Origin: Botryllus schlosseri
Taxonomy: Eukaryota
Assembly (NCBI GenBank): GCA_051294905.1
Contig: CM119372.1
Span: forward strand, 34,350,001 to 34,414,000
Length of the DNA: 64,000 nt
Direction: 5' to 3'
Under the pieces are notes generated by a model. The model did not search any database, had not been told where the DNA came from, and saw only the letters and a program-made list of their open reading frames with translations. Shown here piece after piece: positions 1 to 64,000 of this stretch. The position numbers and the translations under genes were made by a program. Position 1 is the stretch's first letter. Each line of letters starts with the position of its first letter.

Positions 1-838
1 GAATTCGCTCAACACATGCATAAGCACCTTTGCTTTCTCTCGATGAAATCACGGCATGTAGGCTTCAGCCGTTTCCTTCACAATAAAGCAGTCATGCTGT
101 AAAAGCTTCTGTGAAGCAGGTGTTGTTTGTTCATCATGTATTTCGTAACTCAACATGTCCTGAATTAATTTTGAAACAGCACCTGCCAAACTACTAACAA
201 TGCGCACTCAGAATCCCCGCCGGTAGCTGACTTCTTGAACACCTAATCAGCAAGCTGCTGCTGCCGTGATCATTGAAGCATAGCCGATTAGCCAATCAAG
301 AGCCGTGGTTATTTGATTACTAGTCTTCTTGCCGTTCTATGGCCGGTGGCACGCCCATTCCTGAGTAGCTACTTTCAAACGCTTTGCCCGAAATCTTAAC
401 GGCTTTCCTGTAAGCTTCTTTCAGGCTAATTGTTGTTTTTTATCAATAATCTATAGAATGAGACACAATCACGGAGACTTTTTAAGATTTTCCAAATTTT
501 GGACAACCCTACTATGCATGCATATTTTTCTGTACCACCACCACTGCCGTGTGTTATGTATTTTGGTTGGGTGAAAATAAAGACTCTCTCTCTCTCTCTT
601 AAACACCTGAGTCATAGACCAGTGGTTCTCAACTTTTTGTATCCACGGACCGCTTTCGGAGCGTCAAGGACGCCCGCGGACCCCCACGAAGCTTTAGTTC
701 TAATTTAGCTCAATTATCATGCCATCGTCATCTGTCTTGTGCAAATGAAAACTGTGGGCTTAGTGATAAACAGCAACAAAATGACCTTTCGTGAAAATAA
801 AATCATACTGTTTCATGTGGAAATCGAGTTGACTTCTA

Positions 839-1060
839 TTATTTCAAAGCGAATTCTGCAACTGCATTTCTTGAAATACGTGGTCGCGTCTTGAAAATCC
901 GCGCCTTCGATTTGATATGATCGACTGCCCAGAATGCATTTTCACAAATATAGTAGGTGGCGAATGTAATAATTCCTCGTAACGCTGCCGACGACACATT
1001 AGGGTATGATCGCAACAAATATGGCACCAAAATTGACAAACAAATTTTTATAATGAACAT
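839..1060 (-). pseudogene. hAT transposase C-terminal dimerisation-domain remnant
   Basis: Translation SYPNVSSAALRGIITFATYYICENAFWAVDHIKSKAR resembles the hAT motif YP.LS..AL..L.PF.TTYLCE..FS....K.K.R; lies inside the TIR element 620-1664. Confidence 0.7.
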
Positions 1061-1092
1061 ATAACGTCAAGCCATCTATCTTCTATCTAGCA

Positions 1093-1405
1093 CAGTGGTT
1101 CTCAAACTTTTTTGGACACGCCCCCTTTATGACAGTGAACATTTTCGCGCCCCCTTATCGTCATATCACAAAATAAAACCAGAATGATATCAATCCCAAT
1201 GGATAGTTTGATGGCATGGACGGTTATGACTGTTGATGCGAGAATGCTCAAATATGTGATTCGGACTATACACAGAGCAATAACCATGAATTGGAGATAA
1301 ATCACGCGGAGCGCGAACAAAATTTTCAGTTAACAGCAGGTTCGCGCCCACTTCTGATGCCTTAACGCCCCCAAAGGGGCGTGCCCCCCAGTTTGGAAAC
1401 CATTG
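1093..1405. mobile_element. hAT MITE nested in 620-1664
   Basis: TIR CAGTGGTTCTCAAAC / GTTTGGAAACCATTG; perfect TSD ATCTAGCA. Confidence 0.9.
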
Positions 1406-2013
1406 ATCTAGCAGCTTATCTTGCTGTTATTATCGAAAAAGGATTTTTGTAAACATTTCGAAGTCACCGTGATTGACCTTACTCATCCAACTTTTTTTCT
1501 CCACAATGCCCTTTACAAAACATCTCTAAACAGCAAAATGTTTGTATCAGTAGGCTATTGGTAATTTAGCAATTAAAATAAGTTTCCACAGTAGGATATC
1601 AACTATTTTGTGGCTTCGTGGACCCTGTGAAAATGCTTCGCGAACCCTCGGTTGAGAACCACTGTCACAGGCTATCACCAAGCTTTGCGTATTTTTATTT
1701 GTGAACTAAAAGTAATGACTTCGCAAGTAGCATCAGTAATGAGTTTGAACATCTCAGTATCAACACAGAGTTGAGTGATGTGCAGTATACTTTGCCGGCA
1801 ATGTGATGTTATATATTTTTGAATCAAAATTTGAGTTATTTGTATTTGCAGCATGTCACGACACTGCAATGCTCTGCGTGCAGGTAAGAGCTATCATACC
1901 ATGTCCCGATTAGAAGCTCTGAAATCCCTTCTCAAATCCCTAAAGTTGCTAAATATTGGCTGCTGATAATTGCGAATTACTATTAGCCTAGTATAAAATA
2001 TTTTTATATGGGG

Positions 2014-2205
2014 CAGGGGCGGCCAACCCGTGGTCCGCGAGGAGGTTTTGAGTGGCCCGCGAGATAATTCTCGAAATTATTTATAATATCAAAAAATAAA
2101 TTATCCAGTTAATGTATTGTGAATTTGCATGGCCGAACAAAAATTTGATTAGCCTGACTGCGAAATTTGGTATGTTGATGACTAAAATATCAGTTCCGAC
2201 GCATT
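2014..2205 (-). mobile_element. Truncated copy of the MITE family at 16560-17277 and 36264-36952
   Basis: CAGGGGCGGCCAACCCGTGG...GAGTGGCCCGCGAG matches the reverse complement of about 17090-17277; no matching second end with TSD found. Confidence 0.7.
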
Positions 2206-3134
2206 GGCGTAGCCAGGGGCCAGCTACATTTTTCTTAGATATTCGTATACGACCATAACGTAGAATATTTCGTGGCAGAATTATGTGAATATATACTTTT
2301 CTCAGCAGTTCGCGCGATTTTCTTGTCCCTCGATTTCTTACTTATAGTATTAGTACCCCCCCTGAAAATTGAAAATTAAAAATACGCCCGATTTATAGAA
2401 TTGAGTCTGAATATATTCGCAATTATAAGAGAACGTGACGTTCAACAAGCGACTTCGCGTCTGCACTCGCAAAACGATCGGTGGGTTGAAACCGTTGCCC
2501 ATAATGATAGACGCATCATCACCGAAAATCTTCGATATTCATATGTCCAAGCGCCGAATAATCCTGTCCTTCCAAAATGAGCCCAGTGATATACAGAGAC
2601 GACCCACATTATTACATGCAAGTGACATTACTGTTGACCGAGTTCATTCATTGTCTTCGAAAATATTTCGCGCTTCGCGTGGTTAGGAAATAGATGACCA
2701 TTGCCCACTGACTCTTCATGACATAATTGCTATCGATTTTTATATGTAGTACTACAAATCTTGTTTTTACCGTTACCTAGTTCGGTTCGCTCTCATCGTA
2801 CGACTTAACGAACATGAGCAACATTCAAGTGACCCGCGTAATGGTTCGTACATCTCATGTGGGACTTCCGCCAAAAAGGTTGTCCCCCTGATATAAGGCA
2901 AATATCGTACCTTCAAGTTACTTTTAGGCGTGTCCATCGGACCAATGTAATTGGAGCAGTTCGAAAAGAAATTCTGCATAACGTCGGTTAATCACAAAGA
3001 AAAGCAGACCTGACGACGCCTGTAGGACAATGCAGAGACATTGTCTTGCTGATCAAAAGCGCGAAAAACTTTCTTGCAAGTGACATTCCCAAATATAAAT
3101 TCAACGAACAAACTCAGCTATCCATAGTCCAGTT

Positions 3135-5840
3135 CAGTGCTTTTCACCCTATAGGATGGTACGCTTTTGTGCGAATGAAAAAATTAGTAGTGCGAATGAC
3201 GAAGGTAGTGCGATTAAGGCAAATGAAAATCCAGATGAGTGTGGATGAAAATCGTAAATAATTGGTAATCTTTCTGACGCGAAATAATTCAAATGCACTT
3301 AATAGGAAATTCAAGGGCAGTGTCTCCTTAAATTTTGTGGTTGCGACGCAATTGTAAACAAAAACTTGTTTGACTTACGACGCACCACTAGTCGTAGCTT
3401 TGACAATAACTTTGTCTCTCACAAGCTGTCCTGAGTTAATATTTTCGCTCAATAATTATTACGTAACCAAGAGCCTGATTTGAAAGCCGGTGTCGTGGCA
3501 GATACAGTGGATCATCCCTTCTGAGTCGGCGACAGGTTGTAAAAATGTCGTCAAATTGACGTTATTCTTTCTTTCGCTGAACAATCATCATATCTTCGTA
3601 ATAACCGTTCGATTACCGTGAGGCACGAGGATAGTAGTAAATATCATCATTACATACTCACATTTACAAGTTACTGTTACCCTTCTCCTTTAAGGGTTAT
3701 CAAAGTTTGGTCTGCAAAGAGCGTAATTTTGGGTAGACACGGGGCCAGAGCTATCTGGTAATATGTATGTAATATTTGTTGAATTTATTGCCAAAAAAAT
3801 CCTGCGATAGTTTTTACATATCCGCAGGGTCACTATGTTGGGTATTATAGCCAATAAGCGAGACCCACAGAAAATATGGCTTGATCATGGAAATCTGCCG
3901 ACCTGTGGTTTAAATTCATGATACGATTTGTCAGACTTATTTTTTGCTGGAAAACATGGTCGAAGACTATTGCGATTAATTAGTGTTGGGGAGTACAACG
4001 AGTGAACATAAAATGCGGTGCCGAAAAATCAGCGGCTACAAAACCTTGGCCAAAATGATCGTCGCTGGATGGCCTAACCTTTCGATATGGATATGCTCCA
4101 ATGTCGGCAGTCGGCACCGAATAGTCCCGCTCGTGCAATCCGAGTATAGACAGTAGTACAAACGCGACGAGAAGAGGAATTTAAATCACCCCTGTTTGAA
4201 ATCGTGTGCTTCAGACATGTTCGTTTTGGGTACGTTTGTGGTGTGCGCATTCTGCATGTCATAAATCTCTTTAAAATCGTAGCATACTACCGTAATATTA
4301 AAAAAGCCTTCTTTTTCATGTGCGAGGCTCGGGTCGCGAGATGCCACTAAAACTCTGATTTTGGTCGTGGTCTAAGAAGCGGGTTATTGGTTATTGAAGG
4401 TTATTGAGCTGTTCCGAACTTTCACTAGATTGAGCTAAAGAGCCGAACACACGATATCGTGACTTTCTTTGCTCTTCTCATATACTTGCGAGCAGAGGTG
4501 GTCAGTAACGAAGTACTTCTACTTTTTCGAAGTACTCAAGTAGTTTTCTTCTACTTCCGGTACTTACTCAAGTAGATCTGATTTTCGCTACTTCTACTTC
4601 TACTTCGCAATATTTTGTAAACTACTTACTTACTTTTCGCTATTTTCAGTTTGTCAAGTAGAAGTAGTTCAATCTTCCAATCAGGAAGATAGCCGGGGCT
4701 GTTTTCACGGAGCATCAATATTTAATTTTCATAAAAGTTTAGTGAAGCCCAGAATTTTCGTTGCGTTTCGCGCGCAGTGGATACGGATTGACCAATATGA
4801 TTTCACGAAAGTATCGGTGAATATAATTTAGGTAGATGGTTGGCGTGGTTCCGTTCACACTACATTGTCGCTCTTCGCCCATATAAAATAATTCATCACA
4901 GTATATATGACTCATCAAACGTTTGAAACTGATGTTTCGCAATCTAGCATTTACTTGTCATATCGTAATCTAGCATGTCCATGGTGTGTCCAAATCTGGG
5001 AAAGTGGACTCTGATTTTTTTTAGTTTTAGAGCTGTTTTAGCATACCATCTTTGAAACTTTCTGGACTAAAAACATGAAATACATGTTCTGCTTTTAGAA
5101 GTAGTATTTATATTTCACTTTCAATTCCCAGTATCATAAACTTAATTTGAGTTATAATTATTATCAGTTCTTTTGTCTGGCTAACATACATGTTGAAGTA
5201 TAGAAGCAAGTGTAGTAATGCCTTCAATTTCTGGAAATAAAGGTACACAATATGGCATTTTTACGGCCACCATATTTTTTATTAACGTTTATTAATCGCG
5301 CAAAGTGCTTACACCGTATCCTATACAACTTATCCATATTGCTTTTCGACTAAATTATGGGCCTTATAATATGGGGAATGGCGCCATAATAAAACGTGCT
5401 GTTCAAGAAAACAGAGGATTAGCATCGCATTTCCATATCAATACTATCATTTTCATCCCATGATGTGGACGAATACTTATGCTACCGAGAATTGGATACC
5501 TGCTGGTATGCATCAATATGAATCAAGCTCGTCACCTTTCGCATACCTCAATTTGCACCTTTTTACAATCCATGTGAACGAATTAGGATTGTTTTCATAA
5601 CTACTTACTTACTTGAGTACTTTTAAAGTCAGTCAATTCTACTTCTACTTGAAGTAGTTTTAGGTTGCTTATGGAAGAAGTACTTCTACTCGTACTTGAG
5701 TAGATTTTTTCGTCGCTACTTCTGTTTCTACTTGAGTAGATTCCTTGACTACTTTGACCACCTCTGCTTGCGAGACAGAAAATGGGAAATCGAGAAAAAA
5801 GAACGCAAGTTGGAGCACCGTCTCATAAGGTAGCGAGCTC
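3135..5840 (-). mobile_element. Truncated inverted copy of the hAT element at 22227-24182
   Basis: Starts CAGTGCTTTTCA with GTGCGAATG subterminal repeats; colinear reverse-complement similarity to about 22650-24182 (e.g. ctagattgagctaaagagc at 4425 vs gctctttagctcaatcta at 22773); right boundary approximate. Confidence 0.75.
4493..5766. mobile_element. hAT MITE (Ac-type target) with TACTT/AAGTA subterminal repeats
   Basis: TIR CAGAGGTGGTCA / TGACCACCTCTG; perfect TSD CTTGCGAG. Confidence 0.9.
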
Positions 5841-51519: not shown

Positions 51520-53063
51520 CTTGGTAACGCCTTTAACGCCAGACGTTGGTAAATTTGGTTTTCGGCTTTGTGGTGTTAAATATTTTCCATGTGGGGTTGC
51601 GGAACTCGTCAACCTGAACACTTGGTTGTCCAGATGTCCACGCAAGGGTCACTCGATTTCTTTCCAGGCCAAGGTGATTGGGGCAGTTGGTTTTTGTCAG
51701 CGCCGGCAGTACGGTGGAGCAAAAACTTGACCGCACTTTCTCTTGACTTCTCGATCGGTGGTGAGGATTCTTGATGCGTGACCTTGGCCGCTGATATTTC
51801 CTCCTCGAACACAGAACTTTCAGAAGAGCTGTTACTACTTGAAGAGCTGCAACTTGAAGCGGTACTTGAAGTCGAGCTGCTGCTTGAATATCTATTCCTT
51901 CGGCGACTGTTTTCCTGGATGCGTTTCTGAGTTTGCAATCTGCAAGCAGAACAGTTGCTACTGTACGACGCCGCCGAGTCTGATGACGAGCCTTCGCTTT
52001 CCCCGCCGCTCCGCTCCGCCATATACCGCTCCACTAAGTTGAGATTGTTTGGAGTTGGTTTCTTGTTAGAGTCAGAATGATAATCTTGTAGATAGTCGAT
52101 ATCATCATCCGTAATTTAGATATGAGGCACTGGTGCAGCCACTGTTATATTCGCAGAGTCCCCAGTGCCCTTGTCATTTCCGTCGTGTGTTCCTTCAGTT
52201 TTATCGCCTTTTGTGTGGTGTCTCGTGTCTTCGGCTCATTCTTTCCGCGACATTGTTTTAGTTTCAGTGGCTGGTTCTTGTGGTATGGCGTTCTTCTTCG
52301 CATTCTCATTGTCGATTCCCCTTTGAGACTTTTGATCATTTGGATCCGCAGTAGATTCTGCTGGCGTTTTTGTATTATTAGGACCTGCGTCTGGCTTGTC
52401 CTCTTCGGCAATACGCCGTTCATTTATGGTGGGATTGGAAGCATCATTGATGTTTTCAAGATTATTATCAAGCGTTTTTCTATCCTCTTTTTTGATCGAG
52501 TTCCACGCATCCGCAGATTTATCAGAAGCAGATCGTTTATCCGCATCGAGATGGTGTACATCGTCGCTGTCATTTTTAATGTTTTGGTTTCGATCGGCTA
52601 CGTTTGCGCTAGAGACACTTTTCGTCATTGAATCCAGCAATTCTTGAGTGGAACTTCGGGGAGGTGATGAATTCCCGGGTGTCTGTCGGACTTTGTAACT
52701 TTGTGCTATTGAGTCTAGCAGTTTGTTAGAAGAGCTCACACCGTCAACACGGGCAGATGTATTTTTTATTTGTTCACATTCTTCTGGTGATGTCACTTTT
52801 GAAATTGTTTCATCAGCCAATTCAAGACTCAATTCAGATTCCTCTACTTTTTCAATGCTCTCGATGCGGTCGTTATTGGAAGGTACCTGCTCTACTTTCT
52901 CTGTTTTACATTCTCCCGTTTCGCTTACCATGACATCAACGTGGTTCACCTCATTTGAGACACGTAGGACCTCCTGTTGGTTGGAATCTGGCTGAACAAT
53001 GGGAGCATCCAAGGAAGCAATGCTTGAATAGTTGCCAACGTCGACATTGTCAGATGTGGGAAT
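51520..53063 (-). pseudogene. Large low-complexity (Ser/Asp/Glu-rich) exon of the C2-domain gene, disabled and truncated by a P element
   Basis: One frame runs from 53063 to about 51650 with two in-frame stops (TGA 52236-52238, TAA 52116-52118); an inferred 1-nt frameshift near 51648 then leads to ...GVTK|gtacag, in phase 0 with exon 50196-50395. Confidence 0.65.
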
Positions 53064-54323
53064 CAGGGATATCTAGACTAGGGATTGATAACTCTTTTTT
53101 GCCCATTACGTGATGAGGGCAAAATTACAATTATTTGTGAGGACTGCTGTCTGCACCTACGGACCCTTGTTGCCCACTATTACTCCTTCAAGTTGGATAA
53201 CAAATTGCTGATGACATCATTGTGGCCATGACGTCATAATGACCATGGCGTCATAGTGACTATGACGTCACAAATACTTTTCTTTATTATAATATTCGTG
53301 AAATGGCATGCAATTATTTAATTATAAACACAAGATAAACCGTTACAGGACATGCAATACCACCAATTTCGATTGTGTCAATTCTTGGAAGCCTTTGACG
53401 TAAGCTTACTAATTTTACGTAGTTTTTTGATGGCGGCTCAACAAGAGATGGTTGAATCGCTTAAGTTCATTCTTCGCAAAGCAATTGAAAGCTGTCTGGG
53501 CGATGGAGTTGAAGTTTGCATGACCAGATTGACAGCAGTTATTCAAAAGAGGGCGCATTAGGCTTGACAAATCAACCACCTCGTGAGTTGCCTCCGTGAA
53601 AACAAATCTTTGGTTTTGACAACAAAACAATTTTTGCTTCATGTCCATGGAATCACTTATGATGGTGAAATATTTGACAGCAAGCGTCGTTATTGCAAAG
53701 CATAACTCGGTAGGCTCAGCAAGGCCACCTCGATCAGCCATTTTGAATATTCTTTTGTATTCTTCTGGGAAGCAGAAATCCAAATCCGGAACGTCACGGT
53801 CGGTTATCAGCAATGTTTTGCAATCCATGCACTTTCGTCGCACAGAAATTGATCGGCCAATGCATCCACTGACAAAATATATCACACCGGCCTCTTCAGT
53901 TGTGATAAAATTCAGCGGTGCAGAGATAGGCAAAAGAAAGCTCACCAACCATTTGAAATCTTCTGCAGGTTGTAACACAGTTGCGGTCAAAGGTGGGTCT
54001 TGTTCATTCAAATTAAGAATACTCTTCAAACCATGCTGCTGAAGTAAGCTCAAGCAGCGGAACTTCTTTTCCGCAGGCAGTAACTGCTTCACGGACATGA
54101 AAAAGTTTGCCCCATTAACTTGCCGGTACATGCCAAATCTAGCCTCAATGGGATCTGACAAGACTTTTCCGGTGAGAAAATACTTCACGCCATGTTGCCG
54201 TTGAAGGTATCTTGACAGTGAAAGGACTGAGGTCATGGTTTGAATACAAGCCATAAAGGTCTCGTTAGTGAGTCCAGCTCTGTCAGATCTTTGCCACTCC
54301 ATGAATATAGTTATGGCTCTGTT
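53064..54323 (-). mobile_element. 3-prime part of a P-element/THAP9-like transposon (outer copy)
   Basis: Terminus CAGGGATATCTAGACTAGGG at 53064 abuts the host exon; contains the transposase C-terminal half. Confidence 0.8.
53415..54323 (-). pseudogene. P-element/THAP9-like transposase, C-terminal portion
   Basis: GLTNETF, YFLTGKVLSDPIEARFGMYRQVNGANF (catalytic E region), YFVSGCIGR..C..C, DRGGLAEP; open up to the junction at 54323. Confidence 0.9.
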
Positions 54324-54836
54324 CAGGGATATCTAGACTAGGGATTGATAACTCTTTTTTGCCCATTACGTGATGGTTTGCCTTCCCCAGTCAGACCCGC
54401 GAATGAGCCATTGGTGTACTCAATTCTTTGTGCTGTATACACCTCATCTATCATGAGGCATACGATACGATCGCGGGGTGTTAAGTCTTTTGATCGCTCT
54501 TTTAAATAATGCAAGTCTACTTTTCTTGGCTCCACAGTCATTTTCGATGATATTTGGCGAAGTCGACTCATCGAAGGCAAGGCAAAGAAATGCTTCAACT
54601 TTTTGTACAGTGCAGGACTAGTCAATCTCGACAGGAAAGCCAACATAAGAGTATCAGGTGAATATCGGCGACCTTTTGGGTGGATTTGAATCAATTTCAA
54701 CTGTTTCACAATAAATCCTAACAAAGGTGTCATGCAGCCATCCTGTAGAGCTGTGGACTCTGCCGTAGCGACGAGATAATCTTCCAGGATAGACACAGCA
54801 AGACTAATGCTGCTCGAGTCATCACTGCCACTATAC
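54324..54836 (-). mobile_element. Internally deleted P-like copy: transposase N-half fused to the 52-bp terminus
   Basis: KGRRYSPDT...SPALYKKLKHFFALPS...IVCLMIDEVYTAQRIEY (first catalytic D) joined at 54375/54376 to an exact copy of 53064-53115. Confidence 0.85.
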
Positions 54837-57800
54837 AGTAGTAGTAGTTATGATCGCTCGTGAGGTGGGTGGGGCTCTTATGGGCGGGGTGGCGAGCTAA
54901 CGAGAAACCGGGGGTGGCGAACTAACGTTTTCGTCTTATGGCGGGGGTGGCGAACTAACGTTTTCGTCTTATGGCGGGGGTGGCGAGCGGCTGGGAACCT
55001 GGGGTGGCAAGCGGCTCTTTCGTCTTATGGGCGGGGTGGCGAGCGGCTATTGTGTCTTATGGTCGCACGGTAACCCTTTTCAGCATAGGGATCGGTCGCA
55101 AGCGGCTCTTATGTCTTATCGCGGAGGTGGCATACGGCTATTGCGTCTTATGGCGGGGGTGGCATGCGGCTATTGTGTCTTATGGATGCGGTAGTGATTC
55201 GTACTTTCGTTTATAGACTGCGGGCGGCATGTCGTACTTTCAGCAAAAAAGGTGTGAAATAGTTTGCTAAGTCTAGGAATTACTCTCATGGTAATGTTTG
55301 AGTAATTAGATTACCCCAGAGCCGGCGTAGACGGTGATTCGAATATCAACAATAGTCGCGTTCGCAAACTAACACTTCAAAAAGGTGTGAAATATTGGTA
55401 AAATCCAGCGATCACTCACAAGATAATACCTAAGACATAACCATCGCTCGCGACTCGCTGTTACATACATGCCGATCGTTGACAATGTAATATTTTGGTA
55501 ATTAGTTTACCACAGAACCCGCGTAGACGGCGATACCAACAATAGCCGCGTTCACAAACTAACCCTTCAAAAAGGTGCGAAATAGGTTGCAAATCCCACG
55601 ATCACTCACGAGATAACACCTAAGACATAGCCAGCCCTCACCAACTTGTTGTTACATACATTCCAATCGCCACAATGTAATATTTTGATAATTGGTATGT
55701 CACAGGAACTGGATTTCACTGGTAAAATTTAATAAGTAACGGATAACAGAGCCGTCACAGACGATGATTCGAATACCGACAAATTCTCACTTATTTCTGA
55801 TCCCACCCTAATCCTTTGCGAAGTTGACGCTTATTCGAAAAGGTGTGAAATAATTGTAAAGCCCTACGTCGCTGACGGGATAATGCATCAGACATAGCGA
55901 TCTAGTTATAGCATGGGTCGGAATCCATTCGCGGGATGTACTAGGTAAATTGAGATAATCCGAAACGAAATATTTTGACTTTGGTGTAGTGTGAATTGAA
56001 ATAGGATTGACAAACATGGCTATCAACTTTCCCACAGTCCCAAATTGATATTATACACACATTGATTCGAAACAAGTAATGGAACATTGCAACTCTATTC
56101 GCGATCCGACTTTTCGTTTGTCAAAGCGACATTTTTAACATCTTACCATACTCAAAAGAATTATTTACAACATTAACAAGTGTTCAAAATCTAGTTTTCA
56201 CTTACTTGATTATACCACTGCAACTCACAAATTTGAATTAATTCATTCTGGTTGTATTCATATGATCGGTCTTTTTTATTCAATTGTAAAGGTCGTTACT
56301 ATTCTGAAGACAAAGTAAGCTATTTACTAATCGACACATAAATGACTTGACATAAACATATTATATTTTGAGTATACGAGATTTGAATGTCTGAACAATA
56401 ACTGAGAAATAATTTATCACAATAAAATACGTATATTACAGCGTAAAAGATGTTTGAATGTCAGCAACTCTGTACGGTCATAGTTACTACCACTAATTTA
56501 CCCGACCAACTCGTCATGATCATTCCTGAAATCAACACAAATATGACCACTGACTTGAGTTAACCACAAAACAGCATCAAGTTTTAAATCCACTTGTAGC
56601 TTACGGATTATTTGAATGCTGGTTATGTTTTGTTGTAATTGAGTTAACGGAAATAGTATTACGACTCGACATCTGACCATCTTACCATATTCAAAGAATC
56701 AACCACGAAAACATTGTCAAGTAAATCCGTTAACCGACCAACTCAACAGTATCAATATGAAAAACAGCCAAACATACACGAATCCATACAAGCACTAAAA
56801 CCTAAAATCCATAACAAGCCTGGTTGTATTCATATCCCTACATGTCTTTTTTATTCAACTTGAAAAGTCGTTACTATTCTGTAAGACAAAGAAATTACTA
56901 TGCGGTATATTTTGTAAGATAAAAGTAATTACTTCTCGGTGCCCGCGACTTGAGATTAACATAATATGTTTGAGTATGCGAGATTTGAATGTCTGCCCAA
57001 CATGTTGAGAATTCATTTCTTACAATCGAACGCAGGTGTTATATTGAAAATTATCATGATGTAAACATAAGGATTGACACATTGATTTGACATATGTAAT
57101 AGTTGATCATGACTTGACTATTAAATTATTTGCGTTAATTAGACCCGGCGTTGTGGTAAAGATTATTGTGACAGCAACAAACTTTTCAGTACCATTGTTA
57201 TTAACATATTGAGTTGTAAACTATGTGTGTCTAAAATGTTCTCGATTGGAAAATTATTCAGCCTTGGTACAAACCACGCAGAGTATTGTGGATATCAGGA
57301 AATATTTTACAAATGTAATTGTCTGCAGTAAACAAGACTAAAGATGAAACAACAATTTCCTTTGTTGAACAATAACCGGTGCAATACTTTATTGTCGGTG
57401 AGAATTGAAACACTTTCGCGCATTACCTGGTGTCAAGATATCACACTAGGTGAATTGACATACCACCATTTGATTAATGCTTAATCCGTTCGCATCATTT
57501 CACACTCACTTTGATCATTACAAAAGTAAATTGGAATATGTTTGCCAGGCACCACCTATTCAACTATACTTGAGTAATACAGAAACCTCTCAGCATTAAT
57601 AAAATCGAAATGTGCGCTACACTGAAATCTACAAAAATGAGTTTGTATTGCTGTTCGTAGTAGCGATATCGATTTGAACCTCCATCATCTAACCAAACTA
57701 CTGAGAGTCGTTGTCAATTTACATGACGTTCACTGATTACATACTAGAACTATTTGTGCAACGCACACGATCAGAGAAATTGGACATTTTTCCATTGCCA

Positions 57801-57840
57801 TTCGTCAAAGTAAATGTCGTCACAATAATCAGTCACTAAA
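54837..57840 (+). repeat. Left terminal inverted repeat, 3004 bp
   Basis: 55071-57840 is the reverse complement of 61231-64000; paired coordinates sum to 119071 throughout; six substitutions seen. Confidence 0.95.
54865..55185 (+). repeat. GC-rich subterminal minisatellite, unit about 30-34 bp
   Basis: About 9 imperfect copies of GTCTTATGGCGGGGGTGGCGAGCGGCT. Confidence 0.9.
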
Positions 57841-57846
57841 TCAATC

Positions 57847-58122
57847 ATGTCAATCCGTTTCACAATCCACCGTTCTTCAACTCCCCGCACCATAGTGTTA
57901 CGACACAGACAAGAAGCGTCGGTGGAAATAATAAAACACGGAAAGCACACTTTGGTGTTATTTGACATGGATTTTACACCCGACGAACCTTACATTCGAG
58001 CGATGCATTGGAATGGTGATTGTATTATTGATGTCCAGGGAAAACAAATGTATCGATTTATTGGTTTCGTACATATCCAACAAAAACCAGGGTATATGAT
58101 TGTGCACGGTTCGCATATTTGA
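57847..58122 (+). CDS. Hypothetical 91-aa protein at the start of the unique core
   Basis: Intact ATG-to-stop ORF starting 6 nt inside the TIR boundary; no family recognised. Confidence 0.3.
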   Translation: MSIRFTIHRSSTPRTIVLRHRQEASVEIIKHGKHTLVLFDMDFTPDEPYIRAMHWNGDCIIDVQGKQMYRFIGFVHIQQKPGYMIVHGSHI

Positions 58123-58934
58123 CTGTGAACGCTCTATTGATATATGTTGTACAGTTCACTTTCACCGTCGTGCGAATAACCCGTGTCACGGTTCCATGTT
58201 TGTGTGTCTGTATGTCATGCTTCAGATTGACTCAGAGTCATTGCAATGTGGCTTATTGGTATGACATTGTTATCAGGTGACATTCGATCTACATCAAAAC
58301 TACCGGCTATGATAATGTCTGTGGATCGATGTTTGTATACCAACACATTGCATGCAATGTCACACACCTCCATTTCCGCGTATACTGATGTGGGCAAACA
58401 AGCGCGACGTATGTCTGGATGGTATTTTTTCGTGGAAACACACGGTGTAACATGTTTACTTTGAATATTGTTCATTGGTTTATCGATTCAGAGTTGATAT
58501 CCGGCTCCAGTTACATACTTTATCAGGGTTTCCGATTTCAAACTGAATGTCGAGACATACATTGACCAATAAAGACACAATATAGTAAACATGCGGGAGG
58601 AAAACTCGATCTGGAGTTGTTATCGCGATGGGTGACATAAATCCAACCGTTTTCCGAATACCGTTATCCACATACCAACCATCGTCAAGGAGGTGTTTTA
58701 TTCAGACATTTTGACTCTGGAAAATCCAAAGCACGAACCCGGACATCACGGACATATCAGAAACCCCTTTATTCGCCAATTCCGAAAACATACATGTCGA
58801 TGTACAACAGCACATTGTTATTGTATGTGAGTAACCAATGATTTTGATGGGATGCATCAGAGCAAGTGAATATTTGATTACACAAATGTCAGTTTTCAAA
58901 ACGAAAATGGTATTGGTACTCAGGTAAATGATAG

Positions 58935-59298
58935 TTTTCCAAACGAAAAGGGTTTGTTGCCTGGGGAGAAAAGGGTTTGTTGCTCAGTGAAAATGGTTTG
59001 TTGCTCGGGGAAAAAATATATTTCCAAGTGAAAAAGGTTTGTTGCTCAGGGAAAAAATGTATTTCCAAGTGAAAATGGTTTGTTGCTCAGGGAAAAAATA
59101 TATTTCCAAGCGAAAAAGGTTTGTTACTCGGGGAAAAATATATTTCCAAGTGAAAAAGGTTTGTTGTTCAGGGAAAAAATATATTTCCAAGCGAAAAAGG
59201 TTTGTTACTCGGGGAAAAAATATATTTCCAAGTGAAAAACGTTTGTTGTTGAGGGAAAACATATATTTCCAAGTGAAAATGGTTTTGTTACTCGGGTA
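58935..59298. repeat. Tandem array, 40-41 bp unit, about 8 copies plus degenerate flanks
   Basis: G(T/C)GAAAA(A/T)GGTTTGTT(G/A)CTC(A/G)GGGAAAAAATATATTTCCAA repeated head to tail. Confidence 0.95.
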
Positions 59299-61230
59299 AC
59301 GCTAAACTCCCAAGGGAAAATGGTAATTGTACACAAGTAACGACTGACCTCCTGGTGAAAATGATATTTTTACTTGGGTAGGTATCGTATGTTCAGTGTC
59401 AGTGATGTTGTTAAACGTTGTTGCTTGACATCGGTATCCCGTTAGTGTATTATTATGAGTGTGAAAAGGATTTACACATCTTGTGCAGAGTATCAGAGTG
59501 TTGCGACAGTAAAGATATTGTTCGCGTGACGAACCAAGATCGTTGTTTAAATGTTAATGCATTTCGATTACCGAGTTGCTGTACAATAAAGATGAATCTA
59601 CATTAGACCGTGCTGTGTACTTCGATTGAAACCACATGTAAATCTATTCGCACAACTCGATGATGTTGATGTAGTGTTACTAAAATAAATTATTACCTAT
59701 TTACACAACATAAAAATAACAATTCATGTCGTAGTAAGTAAGCTTCTTGAACTCGTGCTTGATGAAAACGATTGGCGACAAGTATGCTTTTGTGTTTGAG
59801 TGAAAAATAATTATTTAGAGTAGTGACAGTTTGTGACCAACGAATGCAAATCGATCATGGTATTACAATATACGCTTTCGTCAACATAACGACTTGGTGC
59901 AGGAGAAACACTTTAACGTTTTTCAATAACCAGAATCTTGAAACATGTTGCTTGTGTGATTTACAGCTGGTGCACAAAGGTTAGCGACGTTTTTTAATAT
60001 AGTTCCACTTTCTAGTTGCTTTGATGTGAGGCTCGGTGCTTCTCGTTAGTAAAGTAAATTGTTTTGTGCGTTAGATTTGTGGTAAGTAAGTCGAATACAT
60101 ACTCTTTTGTGGAAGTAACTGTATTGCTGCAATATCATTGGTAGGTCTCTGAAGCAGTCACCGTGGTTTTAATTTTGAAAGATGTCGCGATGTCGGTATA
60201 ATGTTTTCTAAAAGTCAAACTCGGACGGATATCACGGCTATGTAGGACTTACGATAAACATTATACTTATACAACTTTGTTACAAGAACTATGATATTTC
60301 TGTAAGTGCTATAGTCGTGTGTTGGATTATTTGAATATTTGGATACGTAACCATTCGTATGAAAAAGTTCTTGTGACATCAGAACAGTTTGCAGAGTCAA
60401 ACCAACCATTCAGTTTCGTAGTGTGAGGATATCGAGTAAAGTCGATTACTTTGTGTGATGTAAATATCCTTCGTACTTTTGTAAGAGTTGTGAGGATGAT
60501 CATTCGTATCCTATGAAGTAGCTAGTTGATACTACAAAATATTGAATGATCGCTAACACACTGAGTTCATAACCCAAGATAGTGAAAATTGTGTACTCTT
60601 AGACTAACATAATTCGTATCCAGCAAAACGATAGACACCAAAGGTTCGATGGAGTTTAAATCTAGATTGTATTAAGCGAAGTGGTGAGTATCTCCAGTAA
60701 TAAAGTCGAAACGACCAAAACAAATTTTCTGTGTCTTGTAAATAACTATTTGGTATGATATTACTTGAGTGTGTGACAATTCGTATCCGTCGAGGTTGAA
60801 TGTTTAGCCATATCGAAATGAATCCAGATCACATGAATTATACATTAATCACAATAGAATCGACGAGAATGTTAACCACGTAGAGTGTGTTTGTTTAAAA
60901 GTTATCTCCAATACGGTTACTTCGATCGGTATTAATTCCATGTCATACAAAAACATGTAACCTTTGTACAGTTTCGTAGTACGGGAATATCGAGTGAAGT
61001 TGATTATTTTTGTGTGACGAAAATATCTTGTATTGATATTGGACACTGGTTTCGTTACCCAAGTGAGTGAAAATTGTTCTTGGCTGGACAGATATGATTA
61101 GTATTTAGAAAAAACGACTCACACCGATTAAGCGACGCTGTTTCCTATCCAATGACTGAGTGAAATTTCTCAGGGGTTTGATTTACCGAGTTAATTGTCG
61201 GCGATTCAATCACATACAAGTATATGGTCT

Positions 61231-64000
61231 TTTAGTGACTGATTATTGTGACGACATTTACTTTGACGAATGGCAATGGAAAAATGTCCAATTTCTCTGA
61301 TCGTGTGCGTTGCACAAATAGTTCTAGTATGTAATCAGTGAACGTCATGTAAATTGACAACGACTCTCAGTAGTTTGGTTAGATGATGGAGGTTCAAATC
61401 GATATCGCTACTACGAACAGCAATACAAACTCATTTTTGTAGATTTCAGTGTAGCGCACATTTCGATTTTATTAATGCTGAGAGGTTTCTGTATTACTCA
61501 AGTATAGTTGAATAGGTGGTGCCTGGCAAACATATTCCAATTTACTTTTGTAATGATCAAAGTGAGTGTGAAATGATGCGAACGGATTAAGCATTAATCA
61601 AATGGTGGTATGTCAATTCACCTAGTGTGATATCTTGACACCAGGTAATGCGCGAAAGTGTTTCAATTCTCACCGACAATAAAGTATTGCACCGGTTATT
61701 GTTCAACAAAGGAAATTGTTGTTTCATCTTTAGTCTTGTTTACTGCAGACAATTACATTTGTAAAATATTTCCTGATATCCACAATACTCTGCGTGGTTT
61801 GTACCAAGGCTGAATAATTTTCCAATCGAGAACATTTTAGACACACATAGTTTACAACTCAATATGTTAATAACAATGGTACTGAAAAGTTTGTTGCTGT
61901 CACAATAATCTTTACCACAACGCCGGGTCTAATTAACGCAAATAATTTAATAGTCAAGTCATGATCAACTATTACATATGTCAAATCAATGTGTCAATCC
62001 TTATGTTTACATCATGATAATTTTCAATATAACACCTGCGTTCGATTGTAAGAAATGAATTCTCAACATGTTGGGCAGACATTCAAATCTCGCATACTCA
62101 AACATATTATGTTAATCTCAAGTCGCGGGCACCGAGAAGTAATTACTTTTATCTTACAAAATATACCGCATAGTAATTTCTTTGTCTTACAGAATAGTAA
62201 CGACTTTTCAAGTTGAATAAAAAAGACGTGTAGGGATATGAATACAACCAGGCTTGTTATGGATTTTAGGTTTTAGTGCTTGTATGGATTCGTGTATGTT
62301 TGGCTGTTTTTCATATTGATACTGTTGAGTTGGTCGGTTAACGGATTTACTTGACAATGTTTTCGTGGTTGATTCTTTGAATATGGTAAGATGGTCAGAT
62401 GTCGAGTCGTATTACTATTTCCGTTAACTCAATTACAACAAAACATAACCAGCATTCAAATAATCCGTAAGCTACAAGTGGATTTAAAACTTGATGCTGT
62501 TTTGTGGTTAACTCAAGTCAGTGGTCATATTTGTGTTGATTTCAGGAATGATCATGACGAGTTGGTCGGGTAAATTAGTGGTAGTAACTATGACCGTGCA
62601 GAGTTGCTGACATTCAAACATCTTTTACGCTGTAATATACGTATTTTATTGTGATAAATTATTTCTCAGTTATTGTTCAGACATTCAAATCTCGTATACT
62701 CAAAATATAATATGTTTATGTCAAGTCATTTATGTGTCGATTAGTAAATAGCTTACTTTGTCTTCAGAATAGTAACGACCTTTACAATTGAATAAAAAAG
62801 ACCGATCATATGAATACAACCAGAATGAATTAATTCAAATTTGTGAGTTGCAGTGGTATAATCAAGTAAGTGAAAACTAGATTTTGAACACTTGTTAATG
62901 TTGTAAATAATTCTTTTGAGTATGGTAAGATGTTAAAAATGTCGCTTTGACAAACGAAAAGTCGGATCGCGAATAGAGTTGCAATGTTCCATTACTTGTT
63001 TCGAATCAATGTGTGTATAATATCAATATGGGACTGTGGGAAAGTTGATAGCCATGTTTGTCAATCCTATTTCAATTCACACTACACCAAAGTCAAAATA
63101 TTTCGTTTCGGATTATCTCAATTTACCTAGTACATCCCGCGAATGGATTCCGACCCATGCTATAACTAGATCGCTATGTCTGATGCATTATCCCGTCAGC
63201 GACGTAGGGCTTTACAATTATTTCACACCTTTTCGAATAAGCGTCAACTTCGCAAAGGATTAGGGTGGGATCAGAAATAAGTGAGAATTTGTCGGTATTC
63301 GAATCATCGTCTGTGACGGCTCTGTTATCCGTTACTTATTAAATTTTACCAGTGAAATCCAGTTCCTGTGACATACCAATTATCAAAATATTACATTGTG
63401 GCGATTGGAATGTATGTAACAACAAGTTGGTGAGGGCTGGCTATGTCTTAGGTGTTATCTCGTGAGTGATCGTGGGATTTGCAACCTATTTCGCACCTTT
63501 TTGAAGGGTTAGTTTGTGAACGCGGCTATTGTTGGTATCGCCGTCTACGCGGGTTCTGTGGTAAACTAATTACCAAAATATTACATTGTCAACGATCGGC
63601 ATGTATGTAACAGCGAGTCGCGAGCGATGGTTATGTCTTAGGTATTATCTTGTGAGTGATCACTGGATTTTACCAATATTTCACACCTTTTTGAAGTGTT
63701 AGTTTGCGAACGCGACTATTGTTGATATTCGAATCACCGTCTACGCCGGCTCTGGGGTAATCTAATTACTCAAACATTACCATGAGAGTAATTCCTAGAC
63801 TTAGCAAACTATTTCACACCTTTTTTGCTGAAAGTACGACATGCCGCCCGCAGTCTATAAACGAAATTACGAATCACTACCGCATCCATAAGACACAATA
63901 GCCGCATGCCACCCCCGCCATAAGACGCAATAGCCGTATGCCACCTCCGCGATAAGACATAAGAGCCGCTTGCGACCGATCCCTATGCTGAAAAGGGTTA
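61231..64000 (-). repeat. Right terminal inverted repeat (runs off the window)
   Basis: Mirror of 55071-57840; duplicated ORFs 55808-56035/63036-63263 and 56498-56680/62391-62573. Confidence 0.97.

Follow-up and report, generated by a model that had tools for sequence, protein, structure and literature searches.

A 64,000-nucleotide stretch of the Botryllus schlosseri genome (NCBI GenBank assembly GCA_051294905.1, contig CM119372.1, forward-strand positions 34,350,001 to 34,414,000; G000:C2:34350001-34414000, hereafter the window) was found to carry, at 54840-64297 in window coordinates, a 9,458-bp element with the ends of a Maverick/Polinton transposon. We estimate a probability of about 0.8 that this is a non-autonomous element, a truncated copy of an abundant palindromic family that carries one small gene, ORF91, and that it was inserted into a P-like transposon. 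The genome comprises 495 Mb in 219 contigs, and the contig was read past the end of the window.

Element termini and target site duplication

Self-comparison of the window placed an inverted repeat of 2,770 nt at 55071-57840 and 61231-64000, with zero indels and a spacer of 3,390 bp between the two arms. Base-by-base comparison gave exactly six mismatches (55204, 55409, 56043, 56473, 56659, and 56843) and no inward extension; an earlier note, made from the letters of the window, had listed the same mirror and the same six substitutions, and all six positions were confirmed. Beyond the window, the mirrored right terminus ...CATAACTACTACT (...GCGATCATAACTACTACT in a longer reading) has its last base at window coordinate 64297 and is followed by TACAGT. 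The same six bases (54834-54839) directly precede the left terminus AGTAGTAGT at 54840. The whole arms measure 3,001 bp on the left (54840-57840) and 3,067 bp on the right (61231-64297), are 99.8% identical, and differ by seven substitutions, the seventh at about 55000, and one 66-bp indel, which consists of two additional copies of a 33-bp subterminal repeat in the right arm. The earlier note had given the element roughly 9.4 kb, close to the measured length, and had expected its mirrored end near 64234; the terminus does exist beyond the window, 63 bp further out. Seven substitutions in 3,001 bp make this a recent copy, although younger ones were seen.

The empty site was recovered in all five uninterrupted paralogues of the host transposon that were fetched, each reading ...CCACTA TACAGT TTCCTGC... 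with a single TACAGT, so the element was inserted with a 6-bp target site duplication (TSD). Two TSDs had been proposed in the note: TACAGT, with an element start at 54840, is present on both sides, and CTATAC, with a start at 54837, was ruled out because the empty sites show TACAGT. A Tc1-like reading, in which TA is the duplication and CAGT follows, was also ruled out, since AGTAGTAGT marks the limit of the inverted repeat and the six bases outside it are repeated in direct, not inverted, orientation. The termini AGTAGTAGT...ACTACTACT have the 5'-AG...CT-3' form and the (AGT)n//(ACT)n motif of Mavericks/Polintons, and the 6-bp TSD and terminal inverted repeats (TIRs) of that group are both present. 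This end-motif combined with a 6-bp TSD is described as the commonest signature of vertebrate Mavericks, whose TIRs span 46-1,447 bp (Barreat and Katzourakis 2021, PMC8097293).

Terminal similarity to coding Mavericks

Allowing up to 3 mismatches, the 30-nt tip of the element was found 29 times in the genome and the 32-mer at tip positions 13-44 was found 192 times, against 0 for the reversed control in either case. The terminal 564 bp gave 106 genome matches, many in inverted pairs 8-18 kb apart. A coding Maverick/Polinton of 15.9 kb was located at C12:23788809-23804703, with TSD GACGTA and a TIR of 634 bp at 91% identity. It encodes an integrase with rve and chromodomain, an ATPase-like ORF, and a 1,300-aa ORF that has 414 relatives at E<=0.001 (best 1.7e-274). 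The relatives carry PF03175, some of them are named DNA-directed DNA polymerase in their source databases, and the ORF contains what we take to be polymerase motifs, recognised by eye. A tblastn-type search with this putative pPolB found at least 46 genome matches, 26 of them full-length and 14 of these 26 without an internal stop. On C16 lies a further coding copy, flanked by the TSD CAAGTC and bearing the 32-mer with one mismatch. Both expectations of the earlier note, that the TIR tip would occur elsewhere in the genome and that an autonomous partner with pPolB and integrase would exist, were thus realised, the C12 and C16 copies sharing the tip. Capsid and protease genes were not identified in the C12 copy, where the ATPase-like ORF was the sole member of the capsid/protease/ATPase set recognised, and a PDB sequence search with the polymerase returned a chance match alone (E 0.35). 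The polymerase ORF (locus L028:620-4519, minus strand) escapes PF03175, and Pfam-only screens would under-call Mavericks in this genome.

The first 44 bases of the window element match the coding Mavericks of the same genome, save for a one-base offset at positions 10-12, and its first 56 nt are 89% identical to the C12 copy. The motifs TCTTATGG and GGYGRYGA stand at offsets 37, 49, and 74 in both the window element and the coding Maverick. A perfect 6-bp TSD flanks each of the 12 elements whose ends were read, namely the window copy, nine non-coding elements, and two coding elements. In two instances, the tip variant of non-coding elements agreed with a tip variant of the coding Mavericks. 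From the shared termini and TSDs we infer that the coding Mavericks may act as helpers and mobilise the non-coding elements in trans.

The two central positions of the TSD are CG in nine of the 12 (CACGTT, AACGCA twice, TGCGCA, GACGTA, ACCGGT, TGCGTC, CACGCT, and AACGTT) and differ in TACAGT (window copy), GATGAG, and CAAGTC. This series suggests that the integrase may prefer NNCGNN targets.

Galileo and P elements make TSDs of 7-8 bp, and Foldback elements make TSDs of 9 bp. The window element has neither a 7-9-bp TSD nor P- or FB-type termini, and its TSD length and terminal sequence would exclude fold-back families of other superfamilies. It is highly improbable that the element is nevertheless a fold-back transposon (P/Galileo-like or Mutator-like), moved by a transposase of its own and similar to Maverick ends by coincidence, as positions 13-44 are identical to a coding Maverick end, the tip is (AGT)n, and the TSD is 6 bp in coding and non-coding elements alike. 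What this explanation has in its favour is the lack of any Maverick gene inside the element and the build of its inverted arms, which are long, repetitive within, and equipped with tandem repeats near the tips, like those of Drosophila Foldback and Galileo (PMC3573991).

The palindromic family and the deletion in the window copy

The sister copies of the element are palindromes of 13.2-13.6 kb, with arms of 6.1-6.35 kb and a loop of about 0.9 kb, in which the "core" of the window element is present twice, in opposite orientations. Core positions 389-3390 (3,002 bp) correspond to the inner arm of the sisters and core positions 1-388 to part of the loop. The earlier note had described 3-kb TIRs around a 3.4-kb unique core; the layout is as measured, but the core is not unique, its 3,002 bp being the inner part of the sisters' 6.1-kb arm. 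By this comparison, the window copy is an internally deleted member of the 13-kb palindromic family. Different copies of the family are alike at only about 91-95%, versus 99.7-99.98% from arm to arm within a copy, and 10 close copies have identical loop boundaries, their loops measuring 911-948 bp. The family appears to be very abundant, with at least 150 copies and perhaps about a thousand; by extrapolation, it would make up a few per cent of the 495-Mb genome if most copies are full length. Some members share part of the inner arm alone (core about 1047-3390) at 93% and have other sequence loopward (e.g. C7:3273329-3280523 and C10:10445234-10452352), so the arms are mosaic and modular between subfamilies.

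Relative to its sisters, the window copy has a loop shortened by 541 bp and lacks about 3.1 kb from one inner arm. Arm similarity stops at 57840 and loop similarity restarts at 57845; TCAA, the four bases between them, matches neither. The junction was spanned by one of 40 scored genome matches, which is the window itself, and it is read as a probable one-off deletion of a palindromic copy. Long palindromes are known to undergo central, asymmetric deletion; PMC4255720 describes palindrome alleles with asymmetric deletions and cites a centre-break mechanism (Cunningham et al. 2003).

It is possible, though we consider it unlikely, that the 9.46-kb deleted form itself transposed, the deletion having occurred in a replicating or transposing molecule, for example by polymerase template switching, and not in the chromosome. 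The intact termini and the perfect TSD around the deleted form would fit such an origin, shorter derivatives exist elsewhere (other paired ends 6.6-8.4 kb apart), and internally deleted defective genomes are a common product of viral replication. On the other side, the single occurrence of the junction among the scored matches gives no sign of a deleted form that propagates, and the 4-nt filler is no less compatible with end joining than with template switching.

An assembly artefact at a locus that is really a complete 13-kb palindrome was judged very unlikely. Although long near-perfect palindromes are hard to assemble, and no independent contig among those listed crosses 57840/57841, the two arms were resolved as distinct (seven substitutions and the 66-bp difference in repeat number), many 13-kb palindromic copies are intact in the same assembly, and the junction contains filler bases.

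Reads of RNA runs X24 and X21 were mapped to 57300-58700. X24 gave 79 reads in this interval, 76 of them aligned only partly, and the reads differ from the window copy; ORF91 was covered at a depth of about 4-5 by reads of one mate orientation and at 0 by those of the opposite one, too weak a signal to bear on expression or on the junction. X21 gave zero reads. A pile of X24 reads in both mate orientations was seen at 57723-57816, four reads enter poly(A) after 57754, and 15 reads run into unrelated sequence to the left of 57720; the pile may mark a transcript end or a splice in some copy of the family.

Gene content and ORF91

No stop-to-stop frame longer than 105 aa was found in the element, and the longest frames fall in a 41-bp tandem array. 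With the ORFs of the C12 coding copy as queries, tblastn gave zero matches in the window element and in the C11 copy; in the C10 copy, matches were limited to open frames formed by terminal repeats. None of the 55 ORFs of at least 45 aa from 57801-64000 scored above the Pfam cut-off, and an Rfam scan (E<=0.1) and a tRNA scan of 54000-64000 found nothing. Neither the pPolB and retrovirus-like integrase of Mavericks/Polintons nor their capsid (double and single jelly-roll), protease, and packaging ATPase genes are present. Polintons by definition encode pPolB and integrase (PMC5499653), so the element, having neither gene, is a dependent derivative and not a Polinton proper. Its ends are shared with coding elements of the same genome, as those of a satellite would be; these ends, the 6-bp TSD, and the lack of core genes agree with the earlier description of a non-autonomous, satellite-like Polinton derivative. 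That description had also denied the element any recognisable replication or capsid gene, which holds for polymerase, integrase, and capsid, but the element is not gene-less, as the conserved ORF91 is present.

Among the open frames of at least 120 aa in five other copies, 11 were tested against Pfam, and the single match was to DUF1759, in a BEL/Pao-type frame nested within the C9 copy. This copy is 16.7 kb long, and its extra length is due to the nested 896-aa open frame with DUF1759 (BEL/Pao-type gag region; L010:2182-4869, minus strand).

Only 2 nt separate the restart of loop similarity from the first codon of ORF91, so the window copy has lost what natively lies upstream of the gene. The frame is open and exactly 91 aa long in the window and in eight of 10 close sisters (the other two have one frameshift and one stop, respectively), and it is open and gap-free in seven further copies at 59-88% identity. 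It is the sole part of the loop that can still be aligned between subfamilies, which stand at 59-68% identity in ORF91. Ratios of nonsynonymous to synonymous change (dN/dS, Nei-Gojobori) were mostly 0.2-0.6 among close copies and 0.2-0.3 between subfamilies, with third-position changes in excess (e.g. 28/15/40). Genome-wide, ORF91 was confirmed in 150/150 scored matches, the best 150 of 1,178 candidates taken best first, and 148/150 were without a stop, a share that this order of scoring biases upward. Taken from codon-level conservation, ORF91 is a real gene under purifying selection. It is absent from the C12 coding copy with which it was compared.

Proposed mechanism and points against it

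The following course of events would account for these observations. The protein-primed polymerase of the helpers would copy the family, starting at the AGT repeats, and their integrase would insert the copies, in line with the 6-bp TSDs common to coding and non-coding elements. The palindrome probably arose once, because the loop boundaries are the same in the 10 close copies, and copy-back of one end would be its likeliest source. Near-identity of the arms may then be maintained by arm pairing, either as hairpin or panhandle repair in a displaced single strand or as arm-to-arm gene conversion in the chromosome. Insertion of the window copy into the P-like transposon made a 6-bp duplication, the length produced by Maverick-type integrases. 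A break within or close to the loop, repaired by end joining, would have removed the missing loop segment (541 bp) together with about 3.1 kb of inner arm, leaving 3-kb TIRs, a seemingly unique core, and ORF91 directly behind foreign arm sequence.

Several points weigh against this interpretation. Helper mobilisation is read from shared termini and TSDs, and copy-back and homogenisation from architecture and identity values; the young age of each copy could also account for near-identical arms. Resemblance between the window element and the C12 coding copy ends after about 400 bp, and that copy does not account for the 6-kb arms. The assignment of the 1,300-aa ORF as pPolB draws on the precomputed annotation of its homologues and on the motifs read by eye. 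PF03175 was not matched directly by this ORF in hmmscan, and a Pfam search for PF03175 over the whole genome gave zero matches, but the control of that search was also silent in every genome; the null was rejected as evidence that the polymerase is absent, given that the homologues carry PF03175 and 46 pPolB matches exist. ORF91 has few relatives: a word-based search of 5.8 billion sequences returned one protein only, at 91% identity, an exhaustive profile search of 1.84 billion sequences returned one representative only, no Pfam or PDB relatives were found, and the atlas had no match at >=0.9. Its AlphaFold model has a mean pLDDT of 42.8 and no confident fold. Finally, none of the listed contigs bridges 57840/57841 as independent support for the deletion.

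Feature coordinates and the host transposon

Table 1. Features of the element and its insertion site, in window coordinates, and measured sister copies, in contig coordinates
Feature	Position	Strand	Remarks
Host P/THAP9-like transposon, open frame split by the insertion	53415..54839	-	Continues beyond 64304
Left TSD copy, TACAGT	54834..54839	.	Right copy 64298-64303, outside the window
Terminal 44 nt common to coding Mavericks: (AGT)3 end-motif and 32-mer (positions 13-44)	54840..54883	+	32/32 versus C12 copy, 31/32 versus C16 copy
Left arm (TIR), 3,001 bp, starting AGTAGTAGTTATG	54840..57840	+	Corresponds to the outer half of the 6.1-kb arm in the family
Subterminal 32/33-bp tandem repeats, TCTTATGG...GGTGGCGA units	54876..55217	+	Two more 33-bp units at the right end
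Deletion junction, four filler bases TCAA	57841..57844	.	Between truncated left arm and loop remnant
Loop remnant, about 390 of 934 bp kept	57845..58228	+	541 bp missing
ORF91, 91 codons and stop, orphan gene	57847..58122	+	ATG 2 nt past the point where loop similarity restarts
Right arm, full length 6,069 bp, to 64297 past the window	58229..64000	-	61231-64297 mirrors the left arm; 58229-61230 is inner arm, partner deleted
41-bp tandem array within the inner arm	58945..59367	.	Source of the longest, non-coding open frames
Sister copy, 13.2 kb	C11:15835947-15849146		Arm 6,133 bp, 99.98%; loop 934 bp
Sister copy, about 13.1 kb	C11:15392417-15405548		Arm 6,105 bp, 99.90%
Sister copy, about 13.6 kb	C10:10723817-10737459		Arm 6,351 bp, 99.67%
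Diverged copy, about 15.3 kb	C5		Arm about 5.5 kb, 96.7%

The left flank of the element belongs to a multi-copy transposon with 43 genome matches and encodes a weak, below-cut-off match to a TNP-like RNase H. A THAP domain (E 2e-15) is encoded in the right flank, just past the right end of the element, and a 223-codon frame runs across the empty site in one paralogue of the host. The host frame was found again beyond the right TSD, as anticipated from the abrupt interruption of a P transposase frame at the left end. Within the host transposon, a perfect 53-bp direct repeat occurs at 53063-53115 and 54323-54375, 1,260 bp apart, and the same 53-mer is present at 100% identity at many other loci; it may be a nested insertion or a repeated module of the P-like transposon. 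A serine/arginine-rich open frame with a weak, below-cut-off SR-25 match lies just outside the host transposon (51609-52115, minus strand).

Comparison with known systems

The window element shares with Mavericks/Polintons the 6-bp TSD, the (AGT)n//(ACT)n ends, the TIRs, and ends nearly identical to those of local coding copies with pPolB, chromo-integrase, and ATPase. It differs in the absence of pPolB, integrase, protease, ATPase, and capsid genes and in carrying an orphan 91-aa gene. Its TIRs of 3.0 kb, and those of 6.1-6.35 kb in its sisters, which are almost wholly palindrome, contrast with the 46-1,447 bp given for vertebrates (PMC8097293). Butterfly Polintons with gene-bearing TIRs of about 2 kb are described in a 2026 preprint, so long TIRs as such are not new. 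The additions made by the window are the truncated form, the empty-site proof, the identity of the tip with coding copies, and the TSD series.

Non-autonomous Polinton entries are held in Repbase. Tlr1 was once proposed as a non-autonomous derivative of a self-synthesising transposon (PMC4028283). Such derivatives, like the palindromic family, retain ends of the helper type but not the core genes; the family's giant palindromic architecture, its copy number, and its conserved gene were not found in print, and literature searches returned no description of palindromic, non-coding, Maverick-ended families.

Long inverted repeats also occur in incomplete particles of adenovirus. In copy-back and snap-back defective viral genomes, as in the palindromic family, one end is duplicated in inverted form around a short unique loop, and the replication proteins of a helper are needed, as they would be for the family (PMC6140465). 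The family differs from these in being a long-lived, diversified genomic lineage and not an ephemeral by-product, and in having arms that are not helper sequence beyond about 400 bp. In the Drosophila FB and Galileo fold-backs, too, the inverted arms are very long and repetitive within, and coding capacity is small or nil (PMC3573991), whereas the window element has the TSD length and terminal sequence of a Maverick and no link to a P-type or other transposase. The deletion in the window copy resembles the stabilising central deletions of palindromes in having its breakpoints in loop and arm, a short filler, no long homology, and a less symmetric product (PMC4255720).

Implications

The palindromic lineage is gene-poor and combines the end signature of its helpers with a self-complementary 13-kb body and one small selected gene. 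Mavericks/Polintons are treated as integrated viruses, and to our knowledge parasites of Mavericks in animal genomes have hardly been described. A speculative and, at present, doubtful extension is that the family is a satellite virus, an integrated hyperparasite of the endogenous Mavericks, replicated from the shared AGT ends and packaged in helper capsids, with ORF91, its one unique and selected coding sequence, acting on helper or host in favour of the satellite. If this were true, packaging would explain the narrow size range of 13.2-13.6 kb, near the 15.9 kb of the helper, and the 9.5-kb window copy would be a dead-end remnant, too short and with its ORF91 cut from the native upstream sequence.

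Annotators should bear in mind that the appearance of a long TIR around a unique core arises in such elements only when they are damaged, and the window copy shows one route by which such a palindrome decays. The family would offer a natural system in which to study what terminal sequence a Maverick needs to be replicated and integrated, and how long palindromes survive and decay in an animal genome.

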